Shown in pieces: positions 5,301 through 57,765 of a DNA stretch of 64,000 bases. The DNA comes from a virus: the IMG/VR virus record IMGVR_UViG_3300032291_001492, positions 31,466-95,465 of that record; one strand, given 5' to 3'. The notes under the pieces were generated by a model. The model worked only from the letters and a program-made list of their open reading frames with translations, made no database searches and had not been told where the DNA came from. A program made the translations under genes and the position numbers. The first letter of the stretch is position 1. The number at the start of each line of letters is the position of its first letter.

Positions 5301-8300
5301 CAGTAAATAATATAGGTGATGTTAGTTTTGATGTTACACTAGATTCACAAACATTTAATTATGTTCAAGGAACAAATCCAATTACACAAAAAGTGAATAC
5401 TGGATATGTATACAACTATACATCACGTACTAGCTTTGTAAGACAATTGGGTTGGCAAACAGCAGTATCACCTAGTGTACAATATCAAATTTTTGAATTT
5501 AATTGGTCAATCGATAATCCAATAACTAACTTTGTATGTGATATAGCTCCGGTATCTTCTAGTTCAACTAATTGGCCAACTGTACAAGTTTATATAAATA
5601 ATACCTATTTACCAGATACTGATTTTACAGTTTCAACAACTGATAATACAACCACAGTTACTATATCTCAGATTGACGCTGTTAATACTGTAGTTCAGGT
5701 ATTGATATTAAGTGATCAAGTAAGTTCTACTGCATATTATCAAATACCAATTAACTTAAGCAATAATCCTTTCAATGAAGATGTAACAACAGTTAATATT
5801 GGTGATATTCGCGGACAGTATCAAAGTATGTTCTTTAATAATCCAAATACTTTGGGACCAGTATTTGGACGTAACAACTTCCGTGATTTAGGAAATCTTG
5901 TTCCTTGGGGAAATAGAATTATTCAAAACAGTGCTTCACTTGTGTTGCCTGGAACATTCTTGCGTAAACAAAATCATAATTTGTTTAATTCTATTTTATA
6001 CAACAGTAGACAATACATTACGTTTAAAAATTTATTAATTGATACCGTAAACAATACAGATTATAATCGTATGTTGTCTCCGGCAGAAATGTTAGATGAT
6101 GCAATGGATCAAATAACATCTACAAAAACAGACAGTCAACCATTCTTCTGGAGTGATATGTTGCCTTCTAAGGCACCTTATATTTCTAATACGTATTCTT
6201 TTGCAAACACACTGGATGTTAGTATATATCCTTTAAGCAGAATTTATGATTTTGACAAAGCAAATTATTATGGTGTATTGGTTTATCTAATTAGAGACAG
6301 TATCACCTCACAATTAATTTCTGGAGTGGATTATACTGTAAGCACCAGTGCTCCTTCATTAACAGTTACATTAGATTTATTATCTAACGATCAAATTGTT
6401 ATTAATGAATATAATCAAACATATGGTAGCTATGTACCTAACACGCCTACTAAATTAGGTCTTTACCCTTCGACTATTCCAGCAGTTGTTGTCGATACTG
6501 CATATTTTGAACCTACATATTTTATAGTAGGACATGATGGGTCATATAATAAATTGTTTGGATCATATGATAGTACTACAGGACAATTAGAAGATTTCAG
6601 AGATCAAGTATTACTTGAGTATGAGACACGTATATATAATAACTTAAAACTAAGCAACGTTATTCCAATTCAAACATATGAAGTAATCCCGGGTTTCTTT
6701 AGAGACCTTCAATATTCATATGATGAATTCTTAGAAGTTTATTCTGAATCTTTCTTGGATTGGGTTGGACAAAACAGAGTTGACTATAAAAGACAATTTT
6801 ATAATCCAGTAAATGAATTTTCATATAATTATCGTAACAGCGGAAACAAAATAAACCGAGAAGCAATACAACAGGGATATTTTAGAGGATTGTATTTGTA
6901 TTATTATGATACAACTACTCCTAATGTAACACCTTGGCAAATGATAGGTTATGCAGATCAGCCAACATGGTGGACTGAGCGTTATGGTCCTGCTCCATAT
7001 ACAAGTGATAACTTAATTTTATGGAACGATTTAGCAGAAGGTATAGATTGGAACAATGGTAATCCTGTAGTCATAACAGAATATATTCGTCCTGAGTTAT
7101 TGCAAGTGTTACCAGTAGACAGTAACGGTGATTTAGTGTCACCTCTTACATCTATTGTTGGAAACTATAATAACAATATTTTCAAGCGTGATTGGAAAGT
7201 TGGCGATGTTGGGCCTACAGAATTTAGTTATCGTAGAAGCAGTACATGGCCATTTGATTTGATGCGTCTTTATGCATTAGCAAAGCCAGCTAATTTCTTT
7301 AACTTAGCAGTGGATGTTGACAATTACAAGTACAGTGCTGAGTTTGACCAATATTTGGTTAACAATAGAAGTCATTTACAATTAGGTGATATACCTATAT
7401 ATGGTTTAGGAACTCCTGCAACTAGCTATATTAACTGGATAGTTGATTTTGAAAAACAAGTTGGCATTGATGCAACAACTGATATCACTACTTTATTAAA
7501 GAATTTAGATGTACGTTTGGTATATCGTGTAGCAGGGTTTTCAGATAAGAATTTGTTAAAGTTTTATGTTGAAAAAAGTTCAGCAAACACAACTAATAGT
7601 TCATTATTAATACCTGATGAAAGTTATTCTGTATTATTATACGATAATCAACCATTTGATAGAATTGTATATTCTGGTGTAGTTATCCAAATAACAGAAA
7701 ATGGTTATCAAGTATATGGAAATTCTCAAACTAACGCATACTTTAAAATTTTATTGCCAAAAAATTCAGGATACAGTGAAACTATTGAAGTTGAAAATTT
7801 GTCAGTTAGGATAGCTGATCAATATACAGATAAAGTTGGTATTATTCCTTATGGTACAGAATTTTATAGCGTTCAGGAAGTTGCACAGTTTCTAAGTTCT
7901 TATGGAAAATACCTTGAAAACCAGGGTATGAAATTTGACCAGATAGAAAATGGTATTCCTGTTAATTGGGCTCAAATGATTGCTGAGTTTTTATATTGGT
8001 CGCAAATCGGTTGGGAAATTGGTAGTATAACTACAATAAATCCTTCTGCCTCTACATTAGTAATTGACAAAGACAGTAGCGTTGTACAACCATTAACAGT
8101 AAGACAACGTAACTTTGTACTAAATCAAAACTTATTTCCAATACAATCAATTGATTTAAATGTTGTTCGTCAAGATACTGCATTTACAGCACAACCATTG
8201 AATCAAGGTGATGCGATCAGTTATGGTCAATTTAATATTAGTAACTTTGAACACGGTATCGTTTTTGACAACGTTACATTATTCAACGACATAATTTATA

Positions 8301-11300
8301 ATTTAATTACTGGTTTACGTCAATATCGTGTATCAGTCCGCGGAGCTATAACAGCAGACTGGAATGGTACAGTTGATGCGGCAGGCTTCATTTTAAATCA
8401 AGACAACATCCAAGAATGGAATAGAGAAATTAAATATACCAAGGGTGAAATTGTTCTTTATAAAAATAGGTATTGGACATCTTTAACTATTGTACAACCT
8501 AAAGTATTATTTGACGAACGTGATTGGAAAGAAACAAACTATAACGAAATTCAAAAAGGATTATTGCCTAACAGTCAAACTCGTTCTTTTGAAAGTACAT
8601 TATACTATAACACTGATTCTGCAAACTTAGAAAATGATGCAGATTTATTAAGTTTTAGTTTGATTGGATATCGTCCAAGAGATTACTTAGCACTTGCTGA
8701 TTTAACAGATATCACGCAAGTAAACGTGTACAAAAACATGATTAAAGAAAAAGGTACATTGAATGCAGCCAGTGCGTTCAAGGGTGCTAATTTACCACAA
8801 GGTGGAATTAATTATGACATTTATGAAAACTGGGCTATTAAATCAGGTGAGTTTGGTGGCGTATTAAACAACAACTTTATTGAATTTAACTTAAATCAAG
8901 CGTCATTGACAGGTAATCCAAGTATTGTTGGTTTAACTAATGGAATATTTACTGATGGAGTACAACAAGAAGTACCGTTGTATTCTATATTCAATTATGG
9001 TAGACCAATAACTAGCCCTAATATATTACCTACTATTTCAGCCTCTGAGCCTTCTTCATTATTCCCTACAGCAGGCTATGTCAATTACAATGACGTTAAA
9101 ATGTCAAGTTATTATTATTCTGGTTTAGCTACTGCAACTAATGCTAGTGGAACAATAGTACCTATCAATGAATTTTATGTACGTGATTATGTTTGGTTAG
9201 CAAATTATCTATCTGACTGGAGAGTGTATACACCAGTCAGTTTAGGTTCAATCATTAATGCCAAGAATAATTTGAATGGTACCGTGACTATTACATTTAG
9301 CCAGGCTCATAATTTAACAAGATTTGAGTTATTTGGTATAACAAACTTTGATGTAGCAATTAATAACTATTATCTAGTGGCAGCAGTTGTTGATCCGGTT
9401 AGAGTCATTATTAATCTTTCATTGAGTCCTAGCACACTTAATATTGTGGGTCAAGGTATTGGTTTAAGAATGCAAAGTCAACGTGTAGCAACTGCACCTG
9501 AAATTGTTGATTTACCATTATTAAATAATGAATTCACTAAATCAAAAGTTTGGGTTGATGAAAACAATGACGGCAGCTGGGCAGTATATCGTAAGAGTTT
9601 GAACTATCAGTATGATGCAGAAATCATTAGGGCTTCAAGCCAAACATTTGGTAGCGCAGTTGCATACACTACTCCTATGGGATACTTGATTGGTGATGCA
9701 GATGTTGGAGCAGTATACCGCTATACTTTTAATGCAGAAGCAAATACCTACACACTAGACCAAGCTATTACAAATAGCACTTCATTTGGTTCATATATAT
9801 CTTATGCTGATGATTTATTTGTAATTTCAGAACCAACAAGTGGTTCACCTAAAGTATATGTATATCAATTGATAACCACTACTCTAGTAGACAATCTGAA
9901 TTCTTATCAAACTATTTCTGCACCAGGCGGAGTAACTGACTGGGGTAGCACGACTGCTATTTCAGGTGATCAAAATTGGTTATACATCTCAGATACAGGT
10001 AATGCTAGAGTTTATGTATATCGCAAATCAACTCTTACCAACTTGTATGAAAGTGTAGGATATATTTCAGTAGCAGGTTTAACTTCTGCTGACAATTTTG
10101 GATTTTCGATTGCAACAGACTACTATGGTGATACTGTAGTAATTGGCGCGCCCGATCAAGACTATAATGTAAACACTGATAACTACGGATATGTGTACGT
10201 GTTTGCAAGAACAGTACAGAATTTTATAGCACCTTCTACCAGCCAATCATACATCCCGCAAACATTTGCATTGTCTTGGTCACCCGTCACAGTTACACAA
10301 ACTGCAACTGCTACAGATAGTACCAACGATAGAATCACGATAACAAGTTCTGCTGGTTTTAGTGTTAATGATCCTGTAGTATTCTCTGGTGATATTTTAT
10401 CTTCTGGTGCAATTTCTCAAAATACTGTGTATTATGTTTATGATAAACCAACAGCTACTACATTTAGAATTGCATCAACACGTAATGCAGCCGCACCAAT
10501 TGAATTAACTACAGCTTCAGGCCCACCAAACATGACTGTTACTGTACAAACAACACCGTTGTTTGTTAACATTAACGGAACATTGCTTGAAGATGATTCT
10601 TATGCAGTTATAGGGTCTACGTTATATGTTTACAGTGGATTAACCCCAACATTAAATGCAGGTGATATTCTTTCTGTTAGTGGATCAAATTTTGTATTGA
10701 CACAAACATTAGACAACGGTCAGACACCACGTGTGGGTGTGCAGTTTGGACAAAGCGTAGATACAAATACATACGCTAATGAAATTTTAGTAGGTGCACC
10801 GTTTGAATTAAGTGCTGACAATTATGAAGGTGCTGTACATAGATTTACTAATGGTGGTGAAAAATATGGTTTTATTATTGGTACTGCTAATTGTAATATC
10901 ACAACACCAAGAACAATTTTAATAAACGGATATCAAGTTATTTTACCAATAGGTAATGCAACAAATGCTTCAAACTTTATTAATGCAGCTAACATTCCCA
11001 ATGTAAGTGCTACTTCTATTGACGGTAAATTAGTCATTCAATTAGTTGACATTGCTATAGGATTTGCAGGTTCAAAACTTTCATTGACTGTGTTGAATTC
11101 AGCAACTCCTGCTGAAATGGGAATTAATATCTATACAGCAACACAAACTATTGCTTGCCCACACTTAACTGGACCTACACAATTTGGAAGTGTAATTAAA
11201 TTTAATGAGTTTGGTTCATTTATAGCTAGCGCCCCTACAGGAACTCGCTACTCAGCTACAACATTTGATTTTACAGATGATGAATTAGATAATGACACTG

Positions 11301-14300
11301 TATTTGATAACAATGCTACACAATGGATTGACACATTTACCAATGCTGGTGCAGTATATATGTTTGATTATATTTCTGCATATAATGAAAGTTTAAATAA
11401 TCCAGGTAAATTTGTATATGCTCAAAGTACAAATGCAGAAAATATTGATTACGGTTCGCAACCTTATTATGGTCAGGCATTAGATTTTAATGATAATAGA
11501 GTTACAGTAGGAACTCCTAATTTTAGACCAGGATATGATAATGGTCAAGTAGTAGCATATACTAGTACTAGTACCGAACAAGACTGGGCAGTCTATAGAA
11601 GTTCTGCACCTATCGTTGATATAAATGGTATTGCAAACATTCAGTTATTCAGCGGATCATCTAATACAACATTAGACAACTTAGATTACTTTGATCCATT
11701 ACAAGGAAAATTATTAGGGGCAATTAGAGAAAATATTGATGTTATTTCTAATTCAGATCCTGCGGCATATAACTCTCCTAATAGCATACAGCGTGGTTTA
11801 GTATGGGGAGCAGACAAAGTAGGTCAATTATGGTTTGATACATCAAACACAAGATTTGTTAATTATCATCAAAATGATATTGTTTATAACAGCGCATATT
11901 GGGGTAGAATTTTCTCAGGCAGTGACGTTGCGGTATATTCGTGGGTAGTAAGTAATGTTAGTCCACTCGACTATATTGGCCCAGGCATTCCGTATGATAT
12001 TGATACCTATACTGTTAACGGAGTAATCAATGCAGAAGGCACTATTGTTCCATTATATTATTTCTGGGTAAGAAATACAAATATTGTATTTGAAAAGACT
12101 GGAAAAACATTAGCTGATTCTACATTAGAGGCATACATATCTCAACCTCAAAACACCGGTATAAGTTATTTTGCACCATTACAACCTAACATTTTTGCTT
12201 TATACAATTCAGGTGATTATTTAAATGGTAATGATACTGTATTGCATATTGGTTATGCAACAGGAACTAACGATGATCCTATACACAATCAATATGAATT
12301 GATTCGTGCTGATTATGCAGATGATTTCTTGTCAGGTGTTCCGGGATCAGGTGCTGGATATCAAACACGTTCATCAACGGGTATAACAGAACCAATCTCA
12401 TTGTATAATAGAATGTTAGATAGTATGTGCGGCGTAGATAATGCCGGTGCAGTAGTACCTAACCCATTCTTACCAAGAGCAGTTCAAACCGGTGTTCTTG
12501 CAAGACCGAGACAAAGTTTCTTCTATGATAGATATGATGCATTAAAGAATTATTTACAATATGCCAATGAAGTATTAGCACAATTTCCTATAACAGAAAT
12601 AAGAAATCCTTCATTCTTAAATACTACTGGTGCTACGAACCCATCAACAGTAGACAATCCTGATTGGACAGGAAGTGTATTACCATTCTATGATACAACT
12701 AACTATTGGAGTTATATAAATTGGTGGGCGCCTGGTTATGATAATAATACAAAGTCTGCATTACAAGTTCCGATTTATGCTGATTTATCAACACTAACTG
12801 TTACACCTGGAACAATTGTTACTGTAGCAACAAATGGCAATGGAAATTCAGAAACATATATCTATAATGTAGATGGTTCTTGGACCCGAATTGGATTAAC
12901 AAACGGTACAATTGAATTTAGTAGTGCATTATGGGATTACTCTACTTATAGACTAGGATTTGGTGACAATTTCTTTGATACTACACCGTATGATAACTAC
13001 CCGTCAGAAGAAACTAGATATATTATTCGTTCTTTAAATGAAGAAATTTACAACAACGAATTGTTAATTTTCAGAAATAAAAGTTTAATTTTATTATTTG
13101 AATACATCCAGAGTGAAACATCTGAGAATCAAAATTATTTGCCTTGGTTAAATAAAACATCATTCTTAGATGTATCACACACTATCCGTGAACTACGTCC
13201 AATTGAAGTATTCCAATCAGACAACGAGTTATTCTTGGAAGGTTACATGAATGAAGTTAAACCATATCATGTAGTTATTAAAGAATTCTTATTCAAATAT
13301 ACCGGCACTGATGTATACGAAGGTGACATCACTGATTTTGATTTACCTGCACAGTACAACAGTTCAGTGCAACAGTTTATAACACCGGAATTAGTTTATT
13401 CTAATCCAAACGGTGATAATCAGTATTTACCAAATGATCCTATATGGCAAACTGCCCCTTACATTCAATGGTTTAATAATCACGGAGTAAGTATTGTTGG
13501 TGAAAATGATTATCCTATATCAGTTTTAACATCATACATTGCGACAAATTCAAACTCATGTTATGTTGACAACGTAACCGGATTCCCTGTTACTGGAACA
13601 ATTTTAATTGGCACTGAGTTGATTGGATATTCTAGTGTAAATCTATTAACTAACCAATTATTAGGATTAGCAAGAGGACTACAAAATACTGTAATACAAC
13701 AACACATTCCGGGAGAAACAATCTTTATTGATTTGCCTGCTGTATTAGTGTTGAATGCAGGTAGATTGTATGACAATCCTCCTAAAATTACTGCAATAAC
13801 TGATACTACTATATATCCTGAACCAACAGTACCCGCACAGTTTGAAGCTGTAATGGGCTTAGGTACTGTCATTGGTATAAATGTTATAAATCCTGGACAA
13901 GGATACGCAGTACTTCCTAAAATTGAAATTGATCCTGCTGTTGTTGTTGAAGTTAATAGTACTCAAGTAAATATTTCAAACAATACAATAGAACTTACTA
14001 TACCTACATTACAAACAGGAGATTTGATTGTATATCAGCCTGGTACAAACAGTACTGTAATAGGTGGATTAACTTCAGGACAAAAATATTATGTTAACTT
14101 GTTGGAAGTTTCTCCGGCTCCAATTATAGCACTTTACGCTAGTTATATTGATGCTGATAGAGATCATAACCGTGTAGTTTTAACTAGCACTGGTTCAGGA
14201 GTTCAAAAATTAAACTTAGGTGCAGTTGCGTCTTGTATAACTAGCTCTGTACCAGTGAGAGAAAATAGTATTAATCTACGATTTGACAGAACTTCATATA

Positions 14301-17300
14301 CTTCACAGGTAACTGAGTGGGCATCAGGTGATTTTTACGGTTCATTTTACGCAGGAACTTATTCAAATAGTGACCAAGTTTCATCTTCTTCAATAGCCTT
14401 GCAAAGCACTCAACCACCAATTGATACTATTTTGGCAAGTGCTCAGGGTGCAACATTTGAAATTTTAGATGCTACTAATGATCAAACATTAACATGGTCT
14501 TCACGTACAAGAGAAACAGTACAAACATACGGACCGGCTACTTTATATCCAAATGCTATAAGAATCAATCCATCAACAGGTGGCTCACCCGTTGCAGGAG
14601 AATTGGGTTCTACTGTAGGTTTCTATATAGGGATGCCAGTTAAATTCGTAGGTGCAACTGTAGGAAATTTAGTTAATGAAACTACTTACTATGTAAAATC
14701 TTTGGTAGATTTACCTAATCTAGTTACATCAAATCCGGAAGCTACTGGTTTTACTATATCAGCGACCGTAGATGAAGACGGTGTGCCAGGATCAACATTT
14801 GTTCTTTCAACTGCAACTGTTACGGCTGCTGGTTTACCGATGTTTGTAGGTGAAGTCACTAATACTGCTGTGCTAACTATTAATTATAGCGGCATTAGAA
14901 ACGCAACAGTTACTACATCAGGTACTAACACAATTACAGTATTGCTTACTGCTACTGGACAAAATGGCACTAATGGATTATATACAGGTATACCTGTATA
15001 CTTTACCGGAAATGTGTTTGGTGGAATTTCTGAGAACGAGATTTACTATGTAACTACTGTTACTGGTCCACAGACATTCACTATGTCTACTCAAACAAAT
15101 CCAACAACACTAACTATAACAGAAACAGATTCAGTTACTGATGCTATTACTTGTGACAGTACATTAACTCTTTCTCTTAATGAACCAATCGTGTTTACTG
15201 GAGATGTGTTTGGTAATATTGTTGAAGGTACACAATATTACATTAGAGAACTATTCTCAGGAAATATAACGTTCTCGATTTCTGAAACTATTAACGGACC
15301 TGTATTTGCACTTGCATCTGACACTGGTTCTTGCACAATGATAAGTCAAAAAGACACTGTAACATTACAAGATGATATTGGTTCTATGACAATGAATGTC
15401 AGCTTACCAGTAAGTCCAGGTCAAGTCAATGGACAACTATTTACATTATATCCTACTTCTCAGCAATATATCAATCAAACAGGTGTAGTTACTAACTTGA
15501 TAGAAAGAGACATTAATGCAACTCTTTCAACCGTAAACAGATTGTGCTTGTCAACTTTTACTGGCGGTATTTTAAATTTATATACTAACTTTGAGTTTGA
15601 TGTTGCAAGCAATATAGGCGGACTAACAACATCAGGTGGACCATACATTGTAACTGCTGTAGGAACAACAACTGTTAACGTGTCTAGCACTAGTGGGTCA
15701 GGCAATTGGTTAACTGTACCATTAGATACTAATCCATATACAACTGATGTGTTGTATTCTGGAATGCCAATAATATTCAGTGGGGTATCATTGGGAGGCG
15801 TATTATTAAATACAGTTTACTATGTAGATACTATTGACGCAAGCCCTCCAGTTGGCTCAGGAAGATTTACTATATCAGAAACTTCTGATTTGTCAAGTGG
15901 TATATTTGTAGTTACCAATGATAATGGTGACATGGTTGGTACAGGTGATCCATTCATTCAAGTAGCAGATACATTAAGTAATGCAACAGGTCCGGTGATG
16001 CTAACACAAACTGTTGGCACTACCCCAACATTCGATGTAAGTTATATTTTAGGCGGTTACCGAGTAACAATTCAAAATCCAGGTAGTGTATTTGCAATTG
16101 ACAACACTATAACTATTTTAGGAACTAATTTAGGTGGTACTACACCAGAAAATGATTTAGTGCTGACTGTTTCTTCAATTAATACTACTGGTGGAATAGT
16201 ATCTACTATATGTAACGGAACACCTGCAGGCACAACTGAACAATATTATTTTAAGGTTGTATCAGAAAATCAAGTAGAAGTTTACGAAAATGCAGCCTTA
16301 AGTGTTCCGGTAAGTGGACAAAATTTCCCTTATGTTGGAATCACTTCAACTACTGCTACGATAGCAACTGCTTCAAATGATAGATTTACAGTAACTAGTT
16401 CAGCCGACTTTAGTATAAATGATCCGGTTGTATTTACTGGAACAGTATTTGGTGGAGTTACATTAGGTCAAACATATTATATTAAATCTAAACCAACAGG
16501 CACTACTGTTACTATTACAGAAACTGTAGATGGTACCGTATTCAATATCACTACCAATGCTACAGGTTCAATGACAATGGCAAAATCAGGTGATTATGCA
16601 CTATTACCGGAGCCATTCTTCTTTAGTCCTAGTATCGTAAAATATAACAATCGTGTTTATCAATGTATCGTAAGTAACAATGATCCTGAATTTATTTTAG
16701 GTAAATGGGAACTATTAGATCCGGGTAATAGAAAACTTAACGGGTTAGATAGAGTTATTGCATATTACAGACCTACTGTAAATATGCCGGGTGTTGATTT
16801 AACTCAATTAGTTACCGGTATAACATATCCAAACAGTACATATTTGGGTAATGCATTTGCTCCGGATGACGAATTTACAGTAGATGTTAATTTAACAGAT
16901 CAACCATTTTACCCAACCGGAATTGATTTAAGCACTATTATTTGGAATGGTATAAGCTATCTTGCAGGATCGAATGCAGAAACATACTCATCTATTAATT
17001 TAAGTGAGACTGGTTCATCTTGGGTCATCAATAAAATTTCCAATCAACCAATTGGTATTACCGATTTGCTTTTTGCAGGAGGTAGTTATGTTCTAACTTC
17101 TAATAATCCAGCTACTCCTATACTAATAAGTGACAATGGATTTACTTGGATTAGTAACGGAACATTTACTCCGTTTGATTCAACACCTTATGATATAACA
17201 ACTTTTGATATATCTTCTGTAAATGTTCCTTCTCTGTTATTGAACGGAGTAGTTTACTATAACGGAATATACATTGCAGTGGGAAATAATATCATTTCAT

Positions 17301-20300
17301 CTACTGATTTGTATTCATGGGTTGAACGTTATGCATTCACAAGCACTACATTATCAAATGTATTAAACGATGTTGCTTATGTTAGCACTCCTGGATATAC
17401 TGGATTTGTCGCAGTTGGATTAGGACAACGTTTAATTAGTGGAACAGCAGTAAATGTTGCATTAATATTCACTAGTACGGACGGTTATAACTGGAATCAA
17501 GTATCGTTTACTGACACTGTATTCTCATTAAATGCGATTGCATCAAACAGCGGTAGCATTGTTGCAGTTGGTAATAATGGTATTATCTATGTTAGTTTCA
17601 ATACTGTTAACTGGTTTGCACAAACATCACCGGTATCAGAAAACTTAAACAATATTATTTGGGATAGTTATAATAATCAATTTGTTGCAGTAGGTGATAA
17701 CGGAACTATATTGACCGGTGATGCTAATGGCAACGCATGGACAGCACGAACATCTGGCACAACAGAAGATATACAAAGTGTTGTTTGGAATAATGATGAT
17801 GGCATTTATATTGCTGTTGGATTGAACAATACAATTTTACAAAGTGCTGATGCTATAACATGGATCTCAATTGCTACATTTGAAGTATTACCGTCAGTCT
17901 ATGATATTCAAGGTGATGCGTTTACTGCAGGTTATGGTCCGGAAGAAATGGTTCCTGGGGTAGTATCTGATACTATTACTATGACTGTTGCGACCCGTCC
18001 AGGAACTAACTGGGATGAAACTGTTTATCAACATGTTGGATATAATGTAGTATCTATTGAATTATCACCAATTAATGCATTACAAACAGAGTACAGTTTT
18101 GTAAATATAACCTCTACTCCTGCACAATTAAGTGTGTTTATCATTGACTATACAACAGAATTAAGCACAACAATTTATCAAGGTATTGATTATACAATAG
18201 ATTGGATCAACAAAGTTGTGACTTTGACAAATCCATTAAGTTTTGTTACAGAAGGTACATCAGATAGATTACGTATTGATGTATATGAAGTTGGTAATGG
18301 TGATCAGTTAGTAAAAGCAAATACAGAAACTGATCCTATTAGATTAAACACCACTACTGGATTTCAAGAAATATATGTAAATGCTAATTATAGTGCAGAC
18401 ATTTATCAAGGTTCAGGTATTATTAGACCTAATACTAATCCACTAGAAGCAATTGCGATTGCAACGGATGAAACAACAGATGCAATTACTTGTGAAAGTG
18501 TTGAGAATTTTGTATTGAACGGCACAATTACTTTTAGCGGAGCAGTGTTTGGTGGAATAGTAGAAGACCAAGTTTATTATGTAAAATCTATTAGTTATAT
18601 ATCAAACAGAATTACTATTTCTGAAATATTTAATACAGGTTCAGGCACTGCAGGAGCAACGTTCCCGTTGACTACTGCAACCGGGTTAATGACTGCAATT
18701 ATTCAAGTTGGTACCGGTACAGTATGGACACCTCCTAGCGTGTTCCACAATGGTACTAAACTAGTATTGGGTCATACTGCAAATATAACTAGAACTAAAT
18801 CAGGAACCAATACTATAACTACGAATACTACCGGTGACTTAGTTCCTAATCTATCTATTAAGTTTAGTTCAACTATGTTTGGTGGAGTAATCGTACCGTT
18901 ACAAACATATTACATTAAAACAATTTATGATGGAAATGAATTTACAATTTCAGAAACACCAGGTGGCGCAGAATTAGAATTGACCAACGCTACGGGTGGT
19001 GCAATTTTCATATCAGGTGATTATGCGATTGGTATTGCAGATAATGGCATTTCTGCTGCGGTGTTGTTGGCAAATGAATATGATGCATTAACAGACTATA
19101 TCACTTATACTTTCTTTGGACAAACATTACCTGTACAATATGGTTACACACTTCCGGAAGTGCAACTATTTGAAGGTGATGGATCAACTGCATCATTTAC
19201 ATTAACTAATTATGTGGGTGATAGTAATGTTACAAGTGCAATTGTCGAAATTGATGGTATAAGACAAACTATTTCTGCCTATAATATAAGTGCAATCTCT
19301 AACACTATATTGTTCAACACACCTCCGGCAAACGGATCAACTATAGCGGTTACTTCATATAATTTGACAGACCGTCAATATTTTAATACACAATACGGCA
19401 TTACAGGTTCTTCTGGTGCAACTACAACTACTATTGTAGTTAGTGACACAACCCATAGCGTGGGCACGTTTGACCAAGATACTCCAACTATTGAAACATT
19501 TGACCAAGATACTCCTAGTGTAGTTTTATATGACCAAGAATTAGATTGGCTAACACTGGGTTCAGGCTCAACAAGCAGTTTATCAATTAATTTCCCAATT
19601 GTATTCCAAGCACCAACTCTAGGTGGGTTAATTGCTGGACAAATCTATTATGTAGTAGAAATATTAAATTCAACTGATTTTGTTGTATCTACTCAAGTAG
19701 ACGGAACACCCACAACAGTTACTACTGATAGTGGTTCAATGAATGGTGTGGTTAATGGATTAACAGTTGCTAATATAATTAATATTAATAATGCTATTTC
19801 TAGTCCTTTGACAACTGTATTAGTTACTGGAACTACAGGTGGTGCATCAGATTATGTAGTGTGTGGTTCTACAACTGGACTAATCGTAGATCAACCAATT
19901 ATATTTAAAGCCGCAATAACTACTGCTGGCTCATTTGTTGTAGGTAAAACTTATAAAATTACTACACTAACAGGTACTTCACAAGTGCAGTGGAATACTA
20001 CTGCTGGAACTTCAGGAGTAACATATGTAGTGGGTGATATATTCACAGCCGCAACAGTTGGTGCTGGTACTGGTCAGGCGTTATTAACTGATTTGGGTGG
20101 AATTAATACATTGGGTGAAGTATATTTTGTTCGTTCTGTTGCAAGTGGAACTGAATTTACAATTAAAGATCAGTATGGAACATTAGTTAATCTAACTACT
20201 GCTAGCGGTAGTTTAGTAGGATTTATGGGTGGTCTATCTGCAATTAGTGTAACAACTGGCATAGATCATAATCTATCGGAAAATGAAATAGTTCGTATTG

Positions 20301-21730
20301 ATGGCACATTAGGTTCAGTACAACTTAATAACAATACATACTATACTAAAATAATAACTGACACTGAATTCTTGTTATACGATCAGCCATATAATCCAGC
20401 ATTGAATGCAGTTAATTACCCAGTTACATTCTCATCAACTTATATATCAGGCGGTTACGTTTGGTTAGATGGATTATTTACTGTATCATGTACTAATACA
20501 ATTCGTACATCTTCAAATGGAAATAGAATTACAGTAGATAGCACTGAGTCATTAATTCCTAATACTCCTGTATACTTTACATCAATAGGTGAAAGTCAAG
20601 GTACTAACATATTAGGAAATATCTTAGCAAAGACTGAATATTATGTTTTAGCGGTAAGACCTGAAGTAACTGCTGGTAATTTTATTGTAGGCAATGAATA
20701 TGAGATTGTAGATTTAGGAAATACTAATTGGAATACTTGTGCCGGAACAGTTAGCGTAACTTATGCAATCGGAGATACTTTTGTTGCAGCCGCAACTGAT
20801 CCAGGAACTACTGGTATTGCAACTGGTCTACAAGAGTTTACTATTACTGAAAACAGATTCCCTGATGAAGCTGAAGTTGTATTAACTAATGCTACTGGTA
20901 GTGTTGATGTATCACAATTCCAGCAAGTTAATGTTGATAGATTGTGGGTAACAATAAATGGATACAGAATCCCTTCTTCATTATTGAGAATTAATGAATA
21001 TAATAATTTAAGTATTTTATCAACTGTTACTACCGGTGATGAAGTTATCATTACAAGTATGATGCCAACAGCAACACCTAATGAAAATGTATATTTGTTA
21101 AATGTAACTACAACAAATCAACCTACAGTTTATAGAGCAAACACTCAAACTAGAACTTGGTTAACTCAACCATTGAGTTTCACGGATGAAGTTATTTACT
21201 TAAATGATGCTACTAGGGTTACTGATTCTATAGTACAAGAAGTAATTGCGCCCGCACCAGTTGACGGTAAATATAATATTGGATTAGAAGCTAATAAAAA
21301 TGTAATATGTCACGTGACCGTGTACAACAATACAACTTCAACTTTAGTAGATCCTGCTAATTTTGCAATTATTATCGTTAATTTGGCTCCAATATTACAA
21401 ATTTCAGATGAAGTAAACACTGGAGATTCGTTGACAATAACTACACTTGAGGGAAGATTGTTGTTTGTTAATGGAGAACAGATTGCGTTTGCTGAATGTG
21501 ACATTATAAATAATACAGTCAGTGGATTAACTAGAGGGGCAAATGGTACAGGGGAACAAACTTTTATTCCGTTATATTCTGAAGTATTTGGTATTATTCC
21601 TAATAACAGAATGACTAATGTAACCTACGGGGCTGTGTGGAATTCTTACATTTATAATTCCGTAGACGGGGATCCATTGCAAATTAGTCAGACTATAGGT
21701 GCAAATTTCTTAAAAGTGGATAGAAGTTAA
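2339..21730 (+). CDS. Giant 6463-aa modular virion structural protein (baseplate/tail-associated)
   Basis: Follows the gp6-like gene and is Thr/Ser/Gly/Asn rich. Has FG-GAP-like repeats ('FGFSIATDYYGDTVVIGAP', 'GAVY', ~9640-11560), ~13 'F.G..FGG.....YYV' repeat modules and beta-propeller-like repeats ('FVAVGDNGTIL', ~16930-17880). Confidence 0.7.
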   Translation: MATRIRTLNFLPEIFKTQTNAQFLAATLDQLVAQPNTKKIQGYVGSRFGYGVNATDYYVTEPTKVRTDYQLDPGVVFLKENDTTANDFISYPGIVDGIKLEGGLTQDNNRLFNSQFYSWDSFTNLDKIINFNEYYWLPDGPDRVIISTDVVFNSSNYLVQSLSNEYLISSESQSATSNPTLTLLRGGSYTFSVNQNTQFWIQGEPGVTGYSPTQPNVQTRDVFGVTNNGAENGVITFEVPAQNALNEYNFPPGPAVGVVSSLPFSQINGARVTEIGGIDGVTALDGLTVMFYNTGIADEIGYIQKFYDQTLFDEDGGVPYNEATDYPGTSEFYNNYEGGFYSPVNSNFYTITLLGDQSNPIIQLTPAGIIPTNQTITPTFGSEWVNRNFYRSVDGAIALVPYNSAILDTLYYQDGTNPNKVGIIRLANSNVSNSLDVVTEILGKPQYTAPNGVVFTNGLKILFQGNVTPEIYNNTEFYVEGVGTAIELIPVADLVSPGAFAEGSYIPFDTTPYDVGNFDSSLYLLIDPDYITIARNAINRNAWSRSNRWFHIDVINATADYNNNPELASVATIYNKASRPIIEFYPNLSLFDSGVIGKQPIDFIDFRTTDAFTLVAGQPTYYPDVAGYTGYSATIAPVLAAVTSKTATQTVGLVNQVILSPDTAGIYVNDTIVFGLVTAGGFVPGTTYKIVTPGNTDFTAIGASSNAVGTVFVATGAGSGTGTAGDVDSEFGGLIAGVTYYITEIFGNRITISTEKQGTSVILSSVAGSMSTSIYPYSTTITVATDEVFGLFEVNQYIADSTGILPAVTFINAITEVGSNTILTVSWYNQEVITGTSVASIVSADTTLSNYALFDGARVVFAADTNLSVRNKIYISRFSSIDGTGTPVITLSEAFDGQVLPDEQTSVYRGYNYKGKDFYFNVENWQQAQQKITINQAPKFDIYDENGISFGDSTVYIGTSFTGCSLFQYGLGTGISDPVLGFPLRYSTVNNIGDVSFDVTLDSQTFNYVQGTNPITQKVNTGYVYNYTSRTSFVRQLGWQTAVSPSVQYQIFEFNWSIDNPITNFVCDIAPVSSSSTNWPTVQVYINNTYLPDTDFTVSTTDNTTTVTISQIDAVNTVVQVLILSDQVSSTAYYQIPINLSNNPFNEDVTTVNIGDIRGQYQSMFFNNPNTLGPVFGRNNFRDLGNLVPWGNRIIQNSASLVLPGTFLRKQNHNLFNSILYNSRQYITFKNLLIDTVNNTDYNRMLSPAEMLDDAMDQITSTKTDSQPFFWSDMLPSKAPYISNTYSFANTLDVSIYPLSRIYDFDKANYYGVLVYLIRDSITSQLISGVDYTVSTSAPSLTVTLDLLSNDQIVINEYNQTYGSYVPNTPTKLGLYPSTIPAVVVDTAYFEPTYFIVGHDGSYNKLFGSYDSTTGQLEDFRDQVLLEYETRIYNNLKLSNVIPIQTYEVIPGFFRDLQYSYDEFLEVYSESFLDWVGQNRVDYKRQFYNPVNEFSYNYRNSGNKINREAIQQGYFRGLYLYYYDTTTPNVTPWQMIGYADQPTWWTERYGPAPYTSDNLILWNDLAEGIDWNNGNPVVITEYIRPELLQVLPVDSNGDLVSPLTSIVGNYNNNIFKRDWKVGDVGPTEFSYRRSSTWPFDLMRLYALAKPANFFNLAVDVDNYKYSAEFDQYLVNNRSHLQLGDIPIYGLGTPATSYINWIVDFEKQVGIDATTDITTLLKNLDVRLVYRVAGFSDKNLLKFYVEKSSANTTNSSLLIPDESYSVLLYDNQPFDRIVYSGVVIQITENGYQVYGNSQTNAYFKILLPKNSGYSETIEVENLSVRIADQYTDKVGIIPYGTEFYSVQEVAQFLSSYGKYLENQGMKFDQIENGIPVNWAQMIAEFLYWSQIGWEIGSITTINPSASTLVIDKDSSVVQPLTVRQRNFVLNQNLFPIQSIDLNVVRQDTAFTAQPLNQGDAISYGQFNISNFEHGIVFDNVTLFNDIIYNLITGLRQYRVSVRGAITADWNGTVDAAGFILNQDNIQEWNREIKYTKGEIVLYKNRYWTSLTIVQPKVLFDERDWKETNYNEIQKGLLPNSQTRSFESTLYYNTDSANLENDADLLSFSLIGYRPRDYLALADLTDITQVNVYKNMIKEKGTLNAASAFKGANLPQGGINYDIYENWAIKSGEFGGVLNNNFIEFNLNQASLTGNPSIVGLTNGIFTDGVQQEVPLYSIFNYGRPITSPNILPTISASEPSSLFPTAGYVNYNDVKMSSYYYSGLATATNASGTIVPINEFYVRDYVWLANYLSDWRVYTPVSLGSIINAKNNLNGTVTITFSQAHNLTRFELFGITNFDVAINNYYLVAAVVDPVRVIINLSLSPSTLNIVGQGIGLRMQSQRVATAPEIVDLPLLNNEFTKSKVWVDENNDGSWAVYRKSLNYQYDAEIIRASSQTFGSAVAYTTPMGYLIGDADVGAVYRYTFNAEANTYTLDQAITNSTSFGSYISYADDLFVISEPTSGSPKVYVYQLITTTLVDNLNSYQTISAPGGVTDWGSTTAISGDQNWLYISDTGNARVYVYRKSTLTNLYESVGYISVAGLTSADNFGFSIATDYYGDTVVIGAPDQDYNVNTDNYGYVYVFARTVQNFIAPSTSQSYIPQTFALSWSPVTVTQTATATDSTNDRITITSSAGFSVNDPVVFSGDILSSGAISQNTVYYVYDKPTATTFRIASTRNAAAPIELTTASGPPNMTVTVQTTPLFVNINGTLLEDDSYAVIGSTLYVYSGLTPTLNAGDILSVSGSNFVLTQTLDNGQTPRVGVQFGQSVDTNTYANEILVGAPFELSADNYEGAVHRFTNGGEKYGFIIGTANCNITTPRTILINGYQVILPIGNATNASNFINAANIPNVSATSIDGKLVIQLVDIAIGFAGSKLSLTVLNSATPAEMGINIYTATQTIACPHLTGPTQFGSVIKFNEFGSFIASAPTGTRYSATTFDFTDDELDNDTVFDNNATQWIDTFTNAGAVYMFDYISAYNESLNNPGKFVYAQSTNAENIDYGSQPYYGQALDFNDNRVTVGTPNFRPGYDNGQVVAYTSTSTEQDWAVYRSSAPIVDINGIANIQLFSGSSNTTLDNLDYFDPLQGKLLGAIRENIDVISNSDPAAYNSPNSIQRGLVWGADKVGQLWFDTSNTRFVNYHQNDIVYNSAYWGRIFSGSDVAVYSWVVSNVSPLDYIGPGIPYDIDTYTVNGVINAEGTIVPLYYFWVRNTNIVFEKTGKTLADSTLEAYISQPQNTGISYFAPLQPNIFALYNSGDYLNGNDTVLHIGYATGTNDDPIHNQYELIRADYADDFLSGVPGSGAGYQTRSSTGITEPISLYNRMLDSMCGVDNAGAVVPNPFLPRAVQTGVLARPRQSFFYDRYDALKNYLQYANEVLAQFPITEIRNPSFLNTTGATNPSTVDNPDWTGSVLPFYDTTNYWSYINWWAPGYDNNTKSALQVPIYADLSTLTVTPGTIVTVATNGNGNSETYIYNVDGSWTRIGLTNGTIEFSSALWDYSTYRLGFGDNFFDTTPYDNYPSEETRYIIRSLNEEIYNNELLIFRNKSLILLFEYIQSETSENQNYLPWLNKTSFLDVSHTIRELRPIEVFQSDNELFLEGYMNEVKPYHVVIKEFLFKYTGTDVYEGDITDFDLPAQYNSSVQQFITPELVYSNPNGDNQYLPNDPIWQTAPYIQWFNNHGVSIVGENDYPISVLTSYIATNSNSCYVDNVTGFPVTGTILIGTELIGYSSVNLLTNQLLGLARGLQNTVIQQHIPGETIFIDLPAVLVLNAGRLYDNPPKITAITDTTIYPEPTVPAQFEAVMGLGTVIGINVINPGQGYAVLPKIEIDPAVVVEVNSTQVNISNNTIELTIPTLQTGDLIVYQPGTNSTVIGGLTSGQKYYVNLLEVSPAPIIALYASYIDADRDHNRVVLTSTGSGVQKLNLGAVASCITSSVPVRENSINLRFDRTSYTSQVTEWASGDFYGSFYAGTYSNSDQVSSSSIALQSTQPPIDTILASAQGATFEILDATNDQTLTWSSRTRETVQTYGPATLYPNAIRINPSTGGSPVAGELGSTVGFYIGMPVKFVGATVGNLVNETTYYVKSLVDLPNLVTSNPEATGFTISATVDEDGVPGSTFVLSTATVTAAGLPMFVGEVTNTAVLTINYSGIRNATVTTSGTNTITVLLTATGQNGTNGLYTGIPVYFTGNVFGGISENEIYYVTTVTGPQTFTMSTQTNPTTLTITETDSVTDAITCDSTLTLSLNEPIVFTGDVFGNIVEGTQYYIRELFSGNITFSISETINGPVFALASDTGSCTMISQKDTVTLQDDIGSMTMNVSLPVSPGQVNGQLFTLYPTSQQYINQTGVVTNLIERDINATLSTVNRLCLSTFTGGILNLYTNFEFDVASNIGGLTTSGGPYIVTAVGTTTVNVSSTSGSGNWLTVPLDTNPYTTDVLYSGMPIIFSGVSLGGVLLNTVYYVDTIDASPPVGSGRFTISETSDLSSGIFVVTNDNGDMVGTGDPFIQVADTLSNATGPVMLTQTVGTTPTFDVSYILGGYRVTIQNPGSVFAIDNTITILGTNLGGTTPENDLVLTVSSINTTGGIVSTICNGTPAGTTEQYYFKVVSENQVEVYENAALSVPVSGQNFPYVGITSTTATIATASNDRFTVTSSADFSINDPVVFTGTVFGGVTLGQTYYIKSKPTGTTVTITETVDGTVFNITTNATGSMTMAKSGDYALLPEPFFFSPSIVKYNNRVYQCIVSNNDPEFILGKWELLDPGNRKLNGLDRVIAYYRPTVNMPGVDLTQLVTGITYPNSTYLGNAFAPDDEFTVDVNLTDQPFYPTGIDLSTIIWNGISYLAGSNAETYSSINLSETGSSWVINKISNQPIGITDLLFAGGSYVLTSNNPATPILISDNGFTWISNGTFTPFDSTPYDITTFDISSVNVPSLLLNGVVYYNGIYIAVGNNIISSTDLYSWVERYAFTSTTLSNVLNDVAYVSTPGYTGFVAVGLGQRLISGTAVNVALIFTSTDGYNWNQVSFTDTVFSLNAIASNSGSIVAVGNNGIIYVSFNTVNWFAQTSPVSENLNNIIWDSYNNQFVAVGDNGTILTGDANGNAWTARTSGTTEDIQSVVWNNDDGIYIAVGLNNTILQSADAITWISIATFEVLPSVYDIQGDAFTAGYGPEEMVPGVVSDTITMTVATRPGTNWDETVYQHVGYNVVSIELSPINALQTEYSFVNITSTPAQLSVFIIDYTTELSTTIYQGIDYTIDWINKVVTLTNPLSFVTEGTSDRLRIDVYEVGNGDQLVKANTETDPIRLNTTTGFQEIYVNANYSADIYQGSGIIRPNTNPLEAIAIATDETTDAITCESVENFVLNGTITFSGAVFGGIVEDQVYYVKSISYISNRITISEIFNTGSGTAGATFPLTTATGLMTAIIQVGTGTVWTPPSVFHNGTKLVLGHTANITRTKSGTNTITTNTTGDLVPNLSIKFSSTMFGGVIVPLQTYYIKTIYDGNEFTISETPGGAELELTNATGGAIFISGDYAIGIADNGISAAVLLANEYDALTDYITYTFFGQTLPVQYGYTLPEVQLFEGDGSTASFTLTNYVGDSNVTSAIVEIDGIRQTISAYNISAISNTILFNTPPANGSTIAVTSYNLTDRQYFNTQYGITGSSGATTTTIVVSDTTHSVGTFDQDTPTIETFDQDTPSVVLYDQELDWLTLGSGSTSSLSINFPIVFQAPTLGGLIAGQIYYVVEILNSTDFVVSTQVDGTPTTVTTDSGSMNGVVNGLTVANIININNAISSPLTTVLVTGTTGGASDYVVCGSTTGLIVDQPIIFKAAITTAGSFVVGKTYKITTLTGTSQVQWNTTAGTSGVTYVVGDIFTAATVGAGTGQALLTDLGGINTLGEVYFVRSVASGTEFTIKDQYGTLVNLTTASGSLVGFMGGLSAISVTTGIDHNLSENEIVRIDGTLGSVQLNNNTYYTKIITDTEFLLYDQPYNPALNAVNYPVTFSSTYISGGYVWLDGLFTVSCTNTIRTSSNGNRITVDSTESLIPNTPVYFTSIGESQGTNILGNILAKTEYYVLAVRPEVTAGNFIVGNEYEIVDLGNTNWNTCAGTVSVTYAIGDTFVAAATDPGTTGIATGLQEFTITENRFPDEAEVVLTNATGSVDVSQFQQVNVDRLWVTINGYRIPSSLLRINEYNNLSILSTVTTGDEVIITSMMPTATPNENVYLLNVTTTNQPTVYRANTQTRTWLTQPLSFTDEVIYLNDATRVTDSIVQEVIAPAPVDGKYNIGLEANKNVICHVTVYNNTTSTLVDPANFAIIIVNLAPILQISDEVNTGDSLTITTLEGRLLFVNGEQIAFAECDIINNTVSGLTRGANGTGEQTFIPLYSEVFGIIPNNRMTNVTYGAVWNSYIYNSVDGDPLQISQTIGANFLKVDRS

Positions 21731-54489: not shown

Positions 54490-55371
54490 ATGAAGACTTA
54501 CCGCTCTATCTTTATTAGTGATGTGCATCTCGGAACTAAAGACAGCCAAGCAGGAAAACTAAACAACTTTCTCAAACACAACACCTGCGATACACTTTAT
54601 CTTGTGGGTGACATTATAGATGCATGGCGAATACAACAAAACAAATGGCGTTGGAAACAAAGTCATACTAATGTAGTCCGACGTATACTAGGTCATGCCA
54701 AGCGAGGTACTAGAGTGATTTATGTTGCAGGCAATCACGATGAATTCTTAAGACCTATGATACCTTATGGATTTAGTTTTGGACTAATAGAGATACACAA
54801 TCAAATAGAACACATAGGTGCTGATGGCAAACACTATCTAGTAACGCACGGCGATTTGTTTGACGGCATTACCCGTTTAGCACCTTGGTTAGGTTTCTTG
54901 GGTGACAAAGCCTATGACTTTATATTATATCTTAATAGCAAGTTTAATTGGGTTCGTCATAAAATGGGATTTGGCTATTGGTCATTAAGCAAATATCTTA
55001 AATACAAAGTAAAAAAAGCAGTGGACTTTATATTTCAGTTTGAACGTAATTTAGCAGACTATTGTAAGAAGCGTGGGTTTGATGGTGTTATATGTGGACA
55101 TATACATCATGCTGAGATAAAAGAAATCAACGGCGTCATGTATATGAATGATGGTGATTGGGTTGAATCATGTACGGCATTAATAGAACATCATTCAGGT
55201 ACATGGGAAATTGTAACTTGGACTAAGGAGAAGGATGATGTGGGTATTGATACTAATAGCGGTACACATGAACGATCCAACAGACCAGCCCGGGAGAGTG
55301 GAGCTACAGTTCGCGGATCAAACAACTTGTCTGCAAGTACTAAGCACCCTCAAGTGGCAACTGAAATTTAA
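54490..55371 (+). CDS. plcP: PlcP-like (LpxH2-type) metallophosphoesterase, putative phospholipase C
   Basis: Calcineurin-like motifs 'ISDVHLG', 'LVGDIID.W', 'GNHDEFLR', 'HGD.FD', 'CGHIH', 'N.GDWVES.TAL.E'. Has GNHD rather than the GNRD of E. coli-type LpxH. Adjacent GT4 and Pho box. The last ~45 aa look like read-through across an overlapping gene. Confidence 0.72.
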   Translation: MKTYRSIFISDVHLGTKDSQAGKLNNFLKHNTCDTLYLVGDIIDAWRIQQNKWRWKQSHTNVVRRILGHAKRGTRVIYVAGNHDEFLRPMIPYGFSFGLIEIHNQIEHIGADGKHYLVTHGDLFDGITRLAPWLGFLGDKAYDFILYLNSKFNWVRHKMGFGYWSLSKYLKYKVKKAVDFIFQFERNLADYCKKRGFDGVICGHIHHAEIKEINGVMYMNDGDWVESCTALIEHHSGTWEIVTWTKEKDDVGIDTNSGTHERSNRPARESGATVRGSNNLSASTKHPQVATEI

Positions 55372-55411
55372 AAGTTTTAAGGTGGTAGGAGAATGCAAAA
55401 AACAATTCTGA
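55235..55411 (+). CDS. Small 58-aa 'WVL...Cx21C' protein overlapping the plcP 3' end, not in ORF track
   Basis: Strong SD AAGGAG at 55225-55230. Sequence MMWVLILIAVHMNDPTDQPGRVELQFADQTTCLQVLSTLKWQLKFKSFKVVGECKKQF has the same motif spacing as the tmRNA-internal ORF. Confidence 0.65.
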   Translation: MMWVLILIAVHMNDPTDQPGRVELQFADQTTCLQVLSTLKWQLKFKSFKVVGECKKQF

Positions 55412-56797: not shown

Positions 56798-57151
56798 ATG
56801 CGTATCATAGAAATCCTTACCGAATCACATCATAACTTTACCACTGCTTATCACATTACTACTGTTGAAAATGCAGACAACATCACATATGGTGGATTGG
56901 ATCCATATGATGGCAATGCCTATCTAATAGTAGATACCGGTAATAAAGAAAAACTTAGTAATGATTTCAGAACTGTTGCCGGTTGGATGCTGGCTAAAAC
57001 TGAACGCACAGAAGAACCACTGACTTTACTAAAAGTAAATATAACAGGAATCCCATTAGAAAAAGATAGTGGTTGGTATGTATCCAAGGCACCTATTCCA
57101 GCTGATCGTATCACTGATATGGGTGAAGATGCATTCAATAGCGTAGCATAA
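56798..57151 (+). CDS. Hypothetical protein, possibly ADP-ribosyltransferase/Tpt1-like fold
   Basis: 'AYHITT..N...I..GGL.P...YL...LLKV...IP..I' pattern; TAAATA 4 nt upstream. Confidence 0.45.
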   Translation: MRIIEILTESHHNFTTAYHITTVENADNITYGGLDPYDGNAYLIVDTGNKEKLSNDFRTVAGWMLAKTERTEEPLTLLKVNITGIPLEKDSGWYVSKAPIPADRITDMGEDAFNSVA

Positions 57152-57155
57152 TTAC

Positions 57156-57184
57156 TTGACAATTACTTTGAATAAATATATACT
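57156..57184 (+). promoter_or_regulatory. Sigma70 promoter of the tmRNA with an embedded TAAATA motif
   Basis: TTGACA (57156-57161)-N17-TATACT (57179-57184); TAAATA at 57173-57178. Confidence 0.8.
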
Positions 57185-57190
57185 GTAAGT

Positions 57191-57620
57191 TATTGCTGTA
57201 TGAAGCAAAGAGAAAAGTGTTCTGGACGGGGGTGCGAATCCCCCCAGGTCCACCATAAGGAAAACTATGAACACAACATTTGTGTGGGTGTTGACGTTTA
57301 CTGTTTTGGGAGTAAATCCTGAGCATAAGGCGTTTCCCAAATATCCATCCAAACAAGAGTGTGAGCAAGCGTTAGTGCAGACAAGAGCAGAGTACAAGGC
57401 AAAGAACAAGCATATAGCTGGCGCCTGTACACTGATTATAAAATAGTATCCTTATGATGGGCCTGCATAGTTTCGACAGGGCAACAAGTAAATGAGTGGA
57501 CAGCACGGTAGGCGATGACCGTAAATCAAGCAAAAAAAGTAAACGCAAACGACTCACAGTTTAGCATTGCAGCCTGATTCAGGCAGCTAGGGTAAGACAT
57601 ACCTCGTAACAGAAACTCAG
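57191..57620 (+). ncRNA. ssrA: Circularly permuted (two-piece) tmRNA: acceptor piece ~57191-57255, intervening segment 57256-57458, coding piece 57459-~57620; tag ANDSQFSIAA*
   Basis: T-arm GGGGG-TGCGAAT-CCCCC followed by CAGGTCC-ACCA (57245-57255) lies upstream of the 5' end GGGCCTG (57459-57465). Together they form a 7-bp acceptor stem with the G3-U Ala determinant. 'TTTCGAC' D-like region; CAGGGCA (57477-57483) pairs with TGTTCTG (57218-57224). Tag ORF at 57545-57577. Outer ends are estimates. Confidence 0.92.
57267..57446 (+). CDS. 59-aa ORF inside the tmRNA intervening segment (MNTTFVWVLTFTVLGVNPEHKAFPKYPSKQECEQALVQTRAEYKAKNKHIAGACTLIIK)
   Basis: SD TAAGGA immediately after the CCA. Occupies 180 of the 203-nt intervening segment. 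Motif match to the 55235 ORF. Confidence 0.7.
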   Translation: MNTTFVWVLTFTVLGVNPEHKAFPKYPSKQECEQALVQTRAEYKAKNKHIAGACTLIIK

Positions 57621-57644
57621 AATAGGCTCTTCGGGGCCTATTTT
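57621..57644 (+). terminator. Intrinsic terminator after the tmRNA
   Basis: AATAGGCTC-TTCG-GGGCCTATT followed by TT. Confidence 0.8.
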
Positions 57645-57765
57645 CCCGTTAAGAATGCATATTTATTGAGTAAAGAGTAAAATTATTGGTAGATATTTAT
57701 ATTAATAAATATTATTCTAGCCTGTAAAACAGGTTTAAATTTAAATCATAAAGGAAATATTTAAA

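Follow-up and report, generated by a model that had tools for sequence, protein, structure and literature searches.

Can the spacer of a stable-RNA precursor, a segment commonly viewed as waste, be a gene in its own right? The question is raised by a locus of a freshwater phage where an open reading frame (ORF) of 59 codons fills nearly the whole segment between the two pieces of a permuted tmRNA gene. The stretch of DNA analysed here (64,000 nt; "the window") is part of a 95.5-kb virus record in IMG/VR, and since the completeness of this record is estimated at only ~27%, the phage should be very large. One strand of the window carries all large ORFs; a single ORF of 6463 codons is found at 2339-21730 (+). 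Among the neighbour genes are those for a member of a virion structural protein family, a radical SAM protein, a carbamoyltransferase and a PstS-like protein.

Circularly permuted (two-piece) tmRNA genes occur in Alpha- and Betaproteobacteria, Cyanobacteria and aquatic phages (RF04321, RF01850; PMC11915505; PMC9004378), and two-piece tmRNAs of phages are not new as such (PMC9004378). According to the 2025 tmRNA database paper, the intervening sequence is absent from the mature RNA (PMC11915505). In a full-text literature search, with the original two-piece tmRNA papers outside its reach, no report of a protein gene within a tmRNA intervening sequence was found.

The permuted tmRNA gene of the phage

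A permuted tmRNA with the tag ANDSQFSIAA, at 57163-57668, was the only gene that ARAGORN reported for the window (here and below, coordinates without a locus name refer to the window, and all features of the tmRNA gene are on the + strand). Both Rfam models for such genes matched over their full length, the general permuted model RF04321 with 124.5 bits (cut-off 47; 57194-57577) and the betaproteobacterial type RF01850 with 110.6 bits (cut-off 84; 57142-57646). The original prediction of a permuted gene, whose 3' half ends at 57255 and whose 5' half starts at 57459, thus agrees with ARAGORN and with both Rfam models: the T-arm, the 3' strand of the acceptor stem and the CCA precede the 5' strand of the acceptor stem.

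The acceptor piece (57194-57255; Rfam alignment and ARAGORN) comprises the T-arm (57228-57244), the acceptor 3' strand (57245-57251) and ACCA (57252-57255). It is followed by the spacer, an intervening segment of 203 nt (57256-57458) that separates the encoded CCA from the mature 5' G and is absent from the mature tmRNA. The coding piece (57459-57646), which belongs to the full-length RF01850 match, contains the acceptor 5' strand (GGGCCTG), the pseudoknot region, the tag reading frame ending with Ala-Ala and a stop codon (57545-57577; called by ARAGORN and checked against the sequence), and a G+C-rich terminal hairpin with a short T run (57620-57643). This hairpin matches the 3' hairpin of RF01850 and is likely to be the end of the transcription unit; it was missed by a simple terminator scan because its T run is only 4 nt long. 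The succession of acceptor piece, intervening sequence and coding piece, the tRNA-like domain and the tag frame are as in the known permuted tmRNAs, and, as with these, maturation by tRNA-processing enzymes into two base-paired pieces is to be expected.

The best promoter of the region, a sigma-70-type site (TTGACA-17 nt-TATACT, 57156-57184) matching at 11 of 12 positions, is located directly upstream of the tmRNA gene, and a promoter scan revealed no comparable + strand site within the spacer. Similar promoters precede the tmRNA gene in the related loci L004, L006, L009, L010 and L012. With a single strong promoter solely upstream of the gene, none in the spacer and one terminal hairpin, the tmRNA pieces and the spacer would form a single transcription unit.

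As no gene for SmpB was detected in the 95-kb fragment, the function of this tmRNA must depend on the SmpB of the host. The same observation could be taken to mean that the tmRNA is a non-functional relic and that the locus is a plain mRNA with tmRNA-derived UTRs. This is highly improbable, however, in view of the full-length matches to both Rfam models well above the cut-offs and the conservation of the pseudoknot region, the tag frame and the G3.U pair of the acceptor stem (U.G in 9/9 of the complete loci with the same spacer ORF, see below). Furthermore, compensatory changes across these 9 loci are seen in the T-arm and the acceptor stem, and conservation is higher in the tmRNA parts than in the cargo between them. 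Nor is there any sign of a tmRNA of the group I intron form: no intron family was matched in the window, the T-loop is uninterrupted, and the spacer ORF is without a nuclease domain. Judged by its sequence, the tmRNA is phage-borne, permuted, of the betaproteobacterial type and functional-looking.

The spacer ORF and its predicted product

The ORF (57267-57446, including its TAG stop codon) accounts for 89% of the spacer. Its putative Shine-Dalgarno (SD) site TAAGGA (57256-57261) follows the CCA directly and is located 5 nt upstream of the ATG; the originally predicted positions of both hold. When the body of the ORF was shuffled, 1.6% of the sequences remained open. A search of 5.8 billion proteins gave 12 homologues with 53-71% identity, nearly all of them 58-59 aa long, which share the conserved residues W7, C32, L36 and C54 and have no internal indels. 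In a profile search of 1.84 billion representative proteins, 28 clusters at 50% identity were found, nearly all with proteins of 56-71 aa. The DNA of the homologues was recovered by alignment-based scans of viral contigs, while a scan of viral contigs with the single protein and a protein-alignment scan of genome contigs gave no match; no relative of the spacer ORF was found among GenBank phages either.

In L002-L007, L009 and L010, the ORF is nested in a tmRNA gene that ARAGORN and Rfam both identify as permuted. Together with the window, these are 9 diverged complete loci, in which the ORF always has 59 codons and the spacer always 203 nt; the contig of L014 starts within the ORF and runs directly on into the coding piece of the tmRNA. 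Pairwise dN/dS values of the nested loci are 0.08-0.38 (dS 0.4-3), indels are absent, and the variable columns at codon positions 1, 2 and 3 number 31, 21 and 50. Besides the nested copies, there are free-standing homologues with an SD of their own. In L012/L013, the gene belongs to a row of closely packed genes, with a permuted tmRNA 1.5 kb downstream of it, and in L015-L017 no tmRNA is located nearby.

Purifying selection, named in the original prediction as a check of the ORF, is therefore evident from dN/dS as well as from the frame kept in all 9 diverged loci. It could still be argued that the nested ORF is not translated, as its SD is base-paired in the folded precursor (see below), and that its conservation reflects a role of the spacer at the RNA level, or that a recently captured gene is decaying in place. 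We regard this as scarcely credible: the low dN/dS is accompanied by near-saturated synonymous change, the length of exactly 59 codons is retained although 50 of the 59 third positions vary, free-standing homologues exist, and the SD-like motif goes with those spacers that bear an ORF. By these comparative criteria, the ORF of the spacer is a true protein-coding gene, maintained by purifying selection.

The stop codon of the nested ORF is TAG in 9/9 complete loci. In two of them, a tRNA with the anticodon CUA (amber-reading; labelled Pyl by ARAGORN) is encoded ~1 kb downstream of the tmRNA (L003 4497-4572, L006 4205-4278). Near the free-standing homologue of L016, on a contig of higher G+C content, an ALIL pseudoknot, i.e., a frameshift element of IS3-type insertion sequences, is found at 1444-1560 (-). 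Note also that the database entry P0009 (85 aa) is the 59-aa protein read past a lost stop codon into the 5' half of the tmRNA; its tail PYDGG...VSTGQ...EWTAR is the translation of the conserved tmRNA start and illustrates how nested tmRNA loci are mishandled by gene callers.

AlphaFold2 modelled the protein confidently with a beta-beta-alpha-beta fold (mean pLDDT 87.8), which resembles that of many uncharacterised phage proteins of 55-75 aa (TM 0.7-0.82) and is not matched by any solved structure. The product is thus predicted to be a small, soluble-looking beta-beta-alpha-beta unit with two conserved cysteines (Cys32 and Cys54). A signal peptide or membrane segment, considered for its hydrophobic N-terminus, was rejected, as this part is a beta strand in the model. 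The score against DUF1482 (PF07358) is 15.2 bits (E 0.021) and thus below the gathering cut-off of 25 bits; 15 of 19 members of the protein family match DUF1482 weakly (best E 0.0011, below threshold), and the nearest ESM Atlas cluster having a Pfam family, at 0.80, is DUF1482 as well. DUF1482 is therefore a lead for distant kinship and not a family to which the protein can be assigned. Homology to the 62-aa cargo found in L036 and related loci was considered and not adopted, as alignment by hhalign reached an E value of 0.005 but a probability of 7%.

Another small ORF of the window (58 codons, 55235-55411, +) has the Cys32/Cys54 spacing of the spacer protein and weak similarity to it (BLASTP E 0.001; profile E 0.005 among the ORFs of the genome). 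This ORF appears to be a real gene, as it is conserved with 46-82% identity in 8 other phage loci. It overlaps the final 137 nt of a metallophosphoesterase ORF (54490-55371), the 45-residue tail of which may not be genuine.

The closing stem and the exchange of cargo

The minimum free energy (MFE) fold of the precursor pairs TAAGGA with TCCTTA (57449-57454) and ACTAT (57264-57268) with ATAGT (57443-57447), and both helices prolong the acceptor helix. The first helix and the pairing of the SD in the folded precursor had been foreseen; the second had been described as the 4-bp helix ACTA/TAGT and was found at this place, with 5 bp instead of 4. TAAGGA is therefore both the SD site and the 5' strand of closing helix 1, whose 3' strand (an anti-SD) reads TCTTTA in three loci with preservation of a G.U pair. 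In closing helix 2, the 5' strand includes the A and T of the start codon and the 3' strand the TAG stop codon. The spacer ends with the 5' leader TGAT (57455-57458), which is partly complementary to ACCA and is located just upstream of the putative RNase P site. The energy of the closing duplex is -9.0 kcal/mol, compared to a median of -3.3 kcal/mol when the 3' strand was shuffled.

In the consensus fold of the 9 loci, the acceptor stem, three of the four ACCA/UGAU pairs, TAAGGA/UCCUUA and ACUAU/AUAGU are all kept. There is not a single broken pair in the extension helices of these loci; the changes are solely wobble-compatible and one-sided. True covariation of the stem was seen in the wider family rather than in the clade sharing this cargo. 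A first scan of viral contigs used the junction GGTCCACCA+TAAGG as its seed. It yielded 73 permuted tmRNA loci, whose spacers comprise 69 distinct sequences, and nearly all of these sequences terminate with TGAT. Positions 1-5 of the stem are paired in 68-69 cases, and position 7 is occupied by all four Watson-Crick types (AT 24, GC 14, CG 9, TA 9). Positions 6-11 are paired at a rate of 0.81, as against 0.65 (sd 0.015, maximum 0.70) with partners shuffled among sequences. The covariation that had been proposed as a test of the closing stem is hence present over the 69 related spacers, and this pairing pattern indicates that the inner stem travels and covaries with the cargo, whereas the outer stem stays with the tmRNA. 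As far as can be told from folding and comparison, the SD and the start and stop codons sit in a conserved stem that prolongs the acceptor helix.

The content of the spacer varies widely among related phages. Nearly all spacers of this first scan, which is the source of most cargo examples and over-samples SD-bearing spacers owing to its TAAGG seed, hold an ORF that starts 9-14 nt after the CCA and fills 80-97% of the spacer. About 30 unrelated cargo types of 22-123 aa can be distinguished, e.g., a thioredoxin (PF00085, 75 bits; L103 213-464, -), a DUF2061 membrane protein (72.6 bits; L054 3295-3501, -) and hydrophobic 22-24-mers. Many cargo ORFs end in TGA 1 nt before the mature 5' end of the tmRNA; others, including that of the window, end 12 nt before it. 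The permuted tmRNA of L012 has a spacer of 89 nt (3995-4083) with a hydrophobic ORF of 24 codons that ends in TGA 1 nt before the mature 5' end, and such a 24-codon ORF is also present in L037, L040, L045, L046, L052 and L058.

The tmRNA of L057 is 96% identical to that of the window (acceptor piece 100%, coding piece 94%), but encloses an unrelated cargo of 56 codons; in L005, the cargo is the same as in the window and the tmRNA is just 76% identical. Homology between the window and L057 begins at the transcribed region, stops just past TAAGGAA, returns in the final ~16 nt of the spacer (L057: ...GTTTCTTTATGAT) and is lost past the terminal hairpin; there is no relation between the outer flanks. 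A tmRNA that is so similar and yet carries a different cargo points to cassette exchange, and the variation of cargo that had been proposed for checking is indeed extensive.

By contrast, the expectation that the spacer always carries an ORF does not hold, as about half of the related phage tmRNA spacers are short and have neither an SD nor an ORF. The frequency of ORFs was assessed in a second, less biased scan, which was seeded on the T-arm and acceptor only and gave 124 distinct spacers, 88 of them new. Complete ORFs are present in 41/57 spacers whose first 10 nt include an SD-like motif vs. 2/67 spacers without the motif (Fisher 3e-17). For the 88 new spacers alone, of which 13 have a complete ORF, the corresponding numbers are 11/21 and 2/67 (7e-7). 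The SD therefore comes with the cargo. An apparent spacer of 2427 nt in L296 was discarded as a false positive, this being a standard, non-permuted tmRNA beside tRNA genes.

A 14-mer scan of bacterial genomes gave only chance matches and no tmRNA, and no beta-type permuted tmRNA above the cut-off was found in 151 genomes of one bacterial class. GenBank phages contain no close relative of the tmRNA coding piece; the sole match there was to the acceptor piece of Xanthomonas phage BUDD (ON758385.1), a cultured phage with a 199-kb genome. Its permuted tmRNA (L355 1180-1631) is unannotated in the record, and a CDS for a 'hypothetical protein' is annotated over the acceptor piece. The spacer of ~126 nt possesses the closing stem, but no SD-like start.

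Proposed translation and maturation of the precursor

In our opinion, the spacer is very probably a permissive and well-expressed slot for small genes, in which the tmRNA and the outer stem are kept and the cargo and the inner stem are swapped. What the data show directly is the layout of the locus, a protein under selection, a closing stem that is conserved and covaries, and the exchange of cargo. As for the events on the RNA, we infer co-transcription, translation and the sites and order of processing from the sequence features as follows. One promoter of the host type would give rise to a single early precursor consisting of the acceptor piece, the SD with the 59-codon ORF, the coding piece and the terminal hairpin. 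The two ends of the spacer, each 12-14 nt long, would pair, prolong the acceptor stem and close off the cargo, so that the tRNA-like domain could fold regardless of the insert. Translation of the ORF would most likely be co-transcriptional, with ribosomes engaging the SD when ~190 nt are still to be transcribed before its pairing partner appears, and might also proceed from the released spacer. Later, closure of the stem would hide the SD, join the two tmRNA halves and present a quasi-continuous helix of ~21 bp, and the tRNA-processing enzymes of the host would release the two tmRNA pieces by cleavage at the CCA and the mature 5' G. Termination at 57444-57446 would place the ribosome over the expected RNase P site, so that a given molecule should not be translated and processed at the same time. 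Note that sequestration of the SD in the folded precursor could keep translation low.

The original prediction went further and suggested a bifunctional precursor, in which translation of the spacer ORF and tmRNA maturation compete or are coupled, and an excised spacer that could serve as a mini-mRNA. In such a programmed switch, ribosomes on the ORF would prevent closure of the stem and so slow down RNase P and 3' processing, or else processing would end translation. The relative amounts of protein and tmRNA would be controlled in this way, and the stem-closed spacer would survive its excision as a mini-mRNA. The location of the SD and of the start and stop codons within the stem that prolongs the acceptor helix would suit such coupling. 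So would the distance of 12 nt (1 nt for many other cargos) between the stop codon and the expected RNase P site, as a terminating ribosome must then cover this site, and the recurrence of the architecture over ~30 cargos. However, the layout is common to unrelated cargos, which is also expected if the stem merely insulates the folding of the tmRNA and the SD merely serves expression, and the stem occurs without any SD or ORF in about half of the related spacers. The comparative data fit the simpler slot equally well, and we consider coupled translation and maturation rather unlikely. The same doubt applies to a pre-tmRNA programmed as a two-state molecule, in which translation would block the stem and maturation, and the end of translation would let the stem shut, hide the ribosome-binding site and offer the long helix; this is conceivable, but would not be our first choice. 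A plain slot and a programmed switch are not mutually exclusive.

Several known systems are similar in part to this exchangeable slot. In the dual-function RNAs SgrS/SgrT and RNAIII/delta-haemolysin, the same mature molecule is both messenger and functional RNA. The phage transcript would also combine both roles, with the difference that its coding part is predicted to be a piece cut from a stable-RNA precursor. rRNA operons contain tRNA genes in the 16S-23S spacer, which are released from long processing stems. As predicted for the phage locus, a stable-RNA precursor with pairing flanks yields a second product from its spacer, but this product is another stable RNA, whereas that of the phage tmRNA spacer would be an mRNA.

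Among the tmRNAs themselves, additional genetic material in the intervening sequence is tolerated elsewhere as well, as the 2025 database paper describes a tRNA-Ala gene and a repetitive element at this place; these are, however, single cases, for which no protein-coding cargo is mentioned (PMC11915505). Homing endonuclease genes were described there only within group I introns, which are located in the T-loop of the tmRNA (PMC11915505). Such tmRNAs likewise have a protein gene within the tmRNA gene that is gone from the mature RNA, but they self-splice with ligation and their cargo is a selfish nuclease (PMC11915505), whereas the phage spacers involve neither an intron nor ligation and hold varied small proteins. 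Finally, the intervening sequence of the known permuted tmRNAs is described as discarded in the accounts consulted, while here it contains a protein gene that is under selection, has a ribosome-binding site of its own and is exchanged among related phages.

A tmRNA spacer inside a conserved processing stem can thus be protein-coding, subject to selection and equipped with a ribosome-binding site, and its content is exchanged by related phages. The locus would be a natural and compact case of translation and RNA maturation acting on the same short RNA. Small phage genes of this hidden class will be overlooked in automatic annotation or listed as overlapping a tmRNA, and tmRNA finders should accommodate long coding spacers. 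Furthermore, the locus suggests a portable design for the expression of peptides from a stable-RNA gene. If the precursor were indeed a two-state molecule, one early transcript would let the phage set when, and in what proportion, a small protein and ribosome-rescue capacity are provided, and the spacer bounded by its stem would be a general gene-cassette system for stable-RNA genes.
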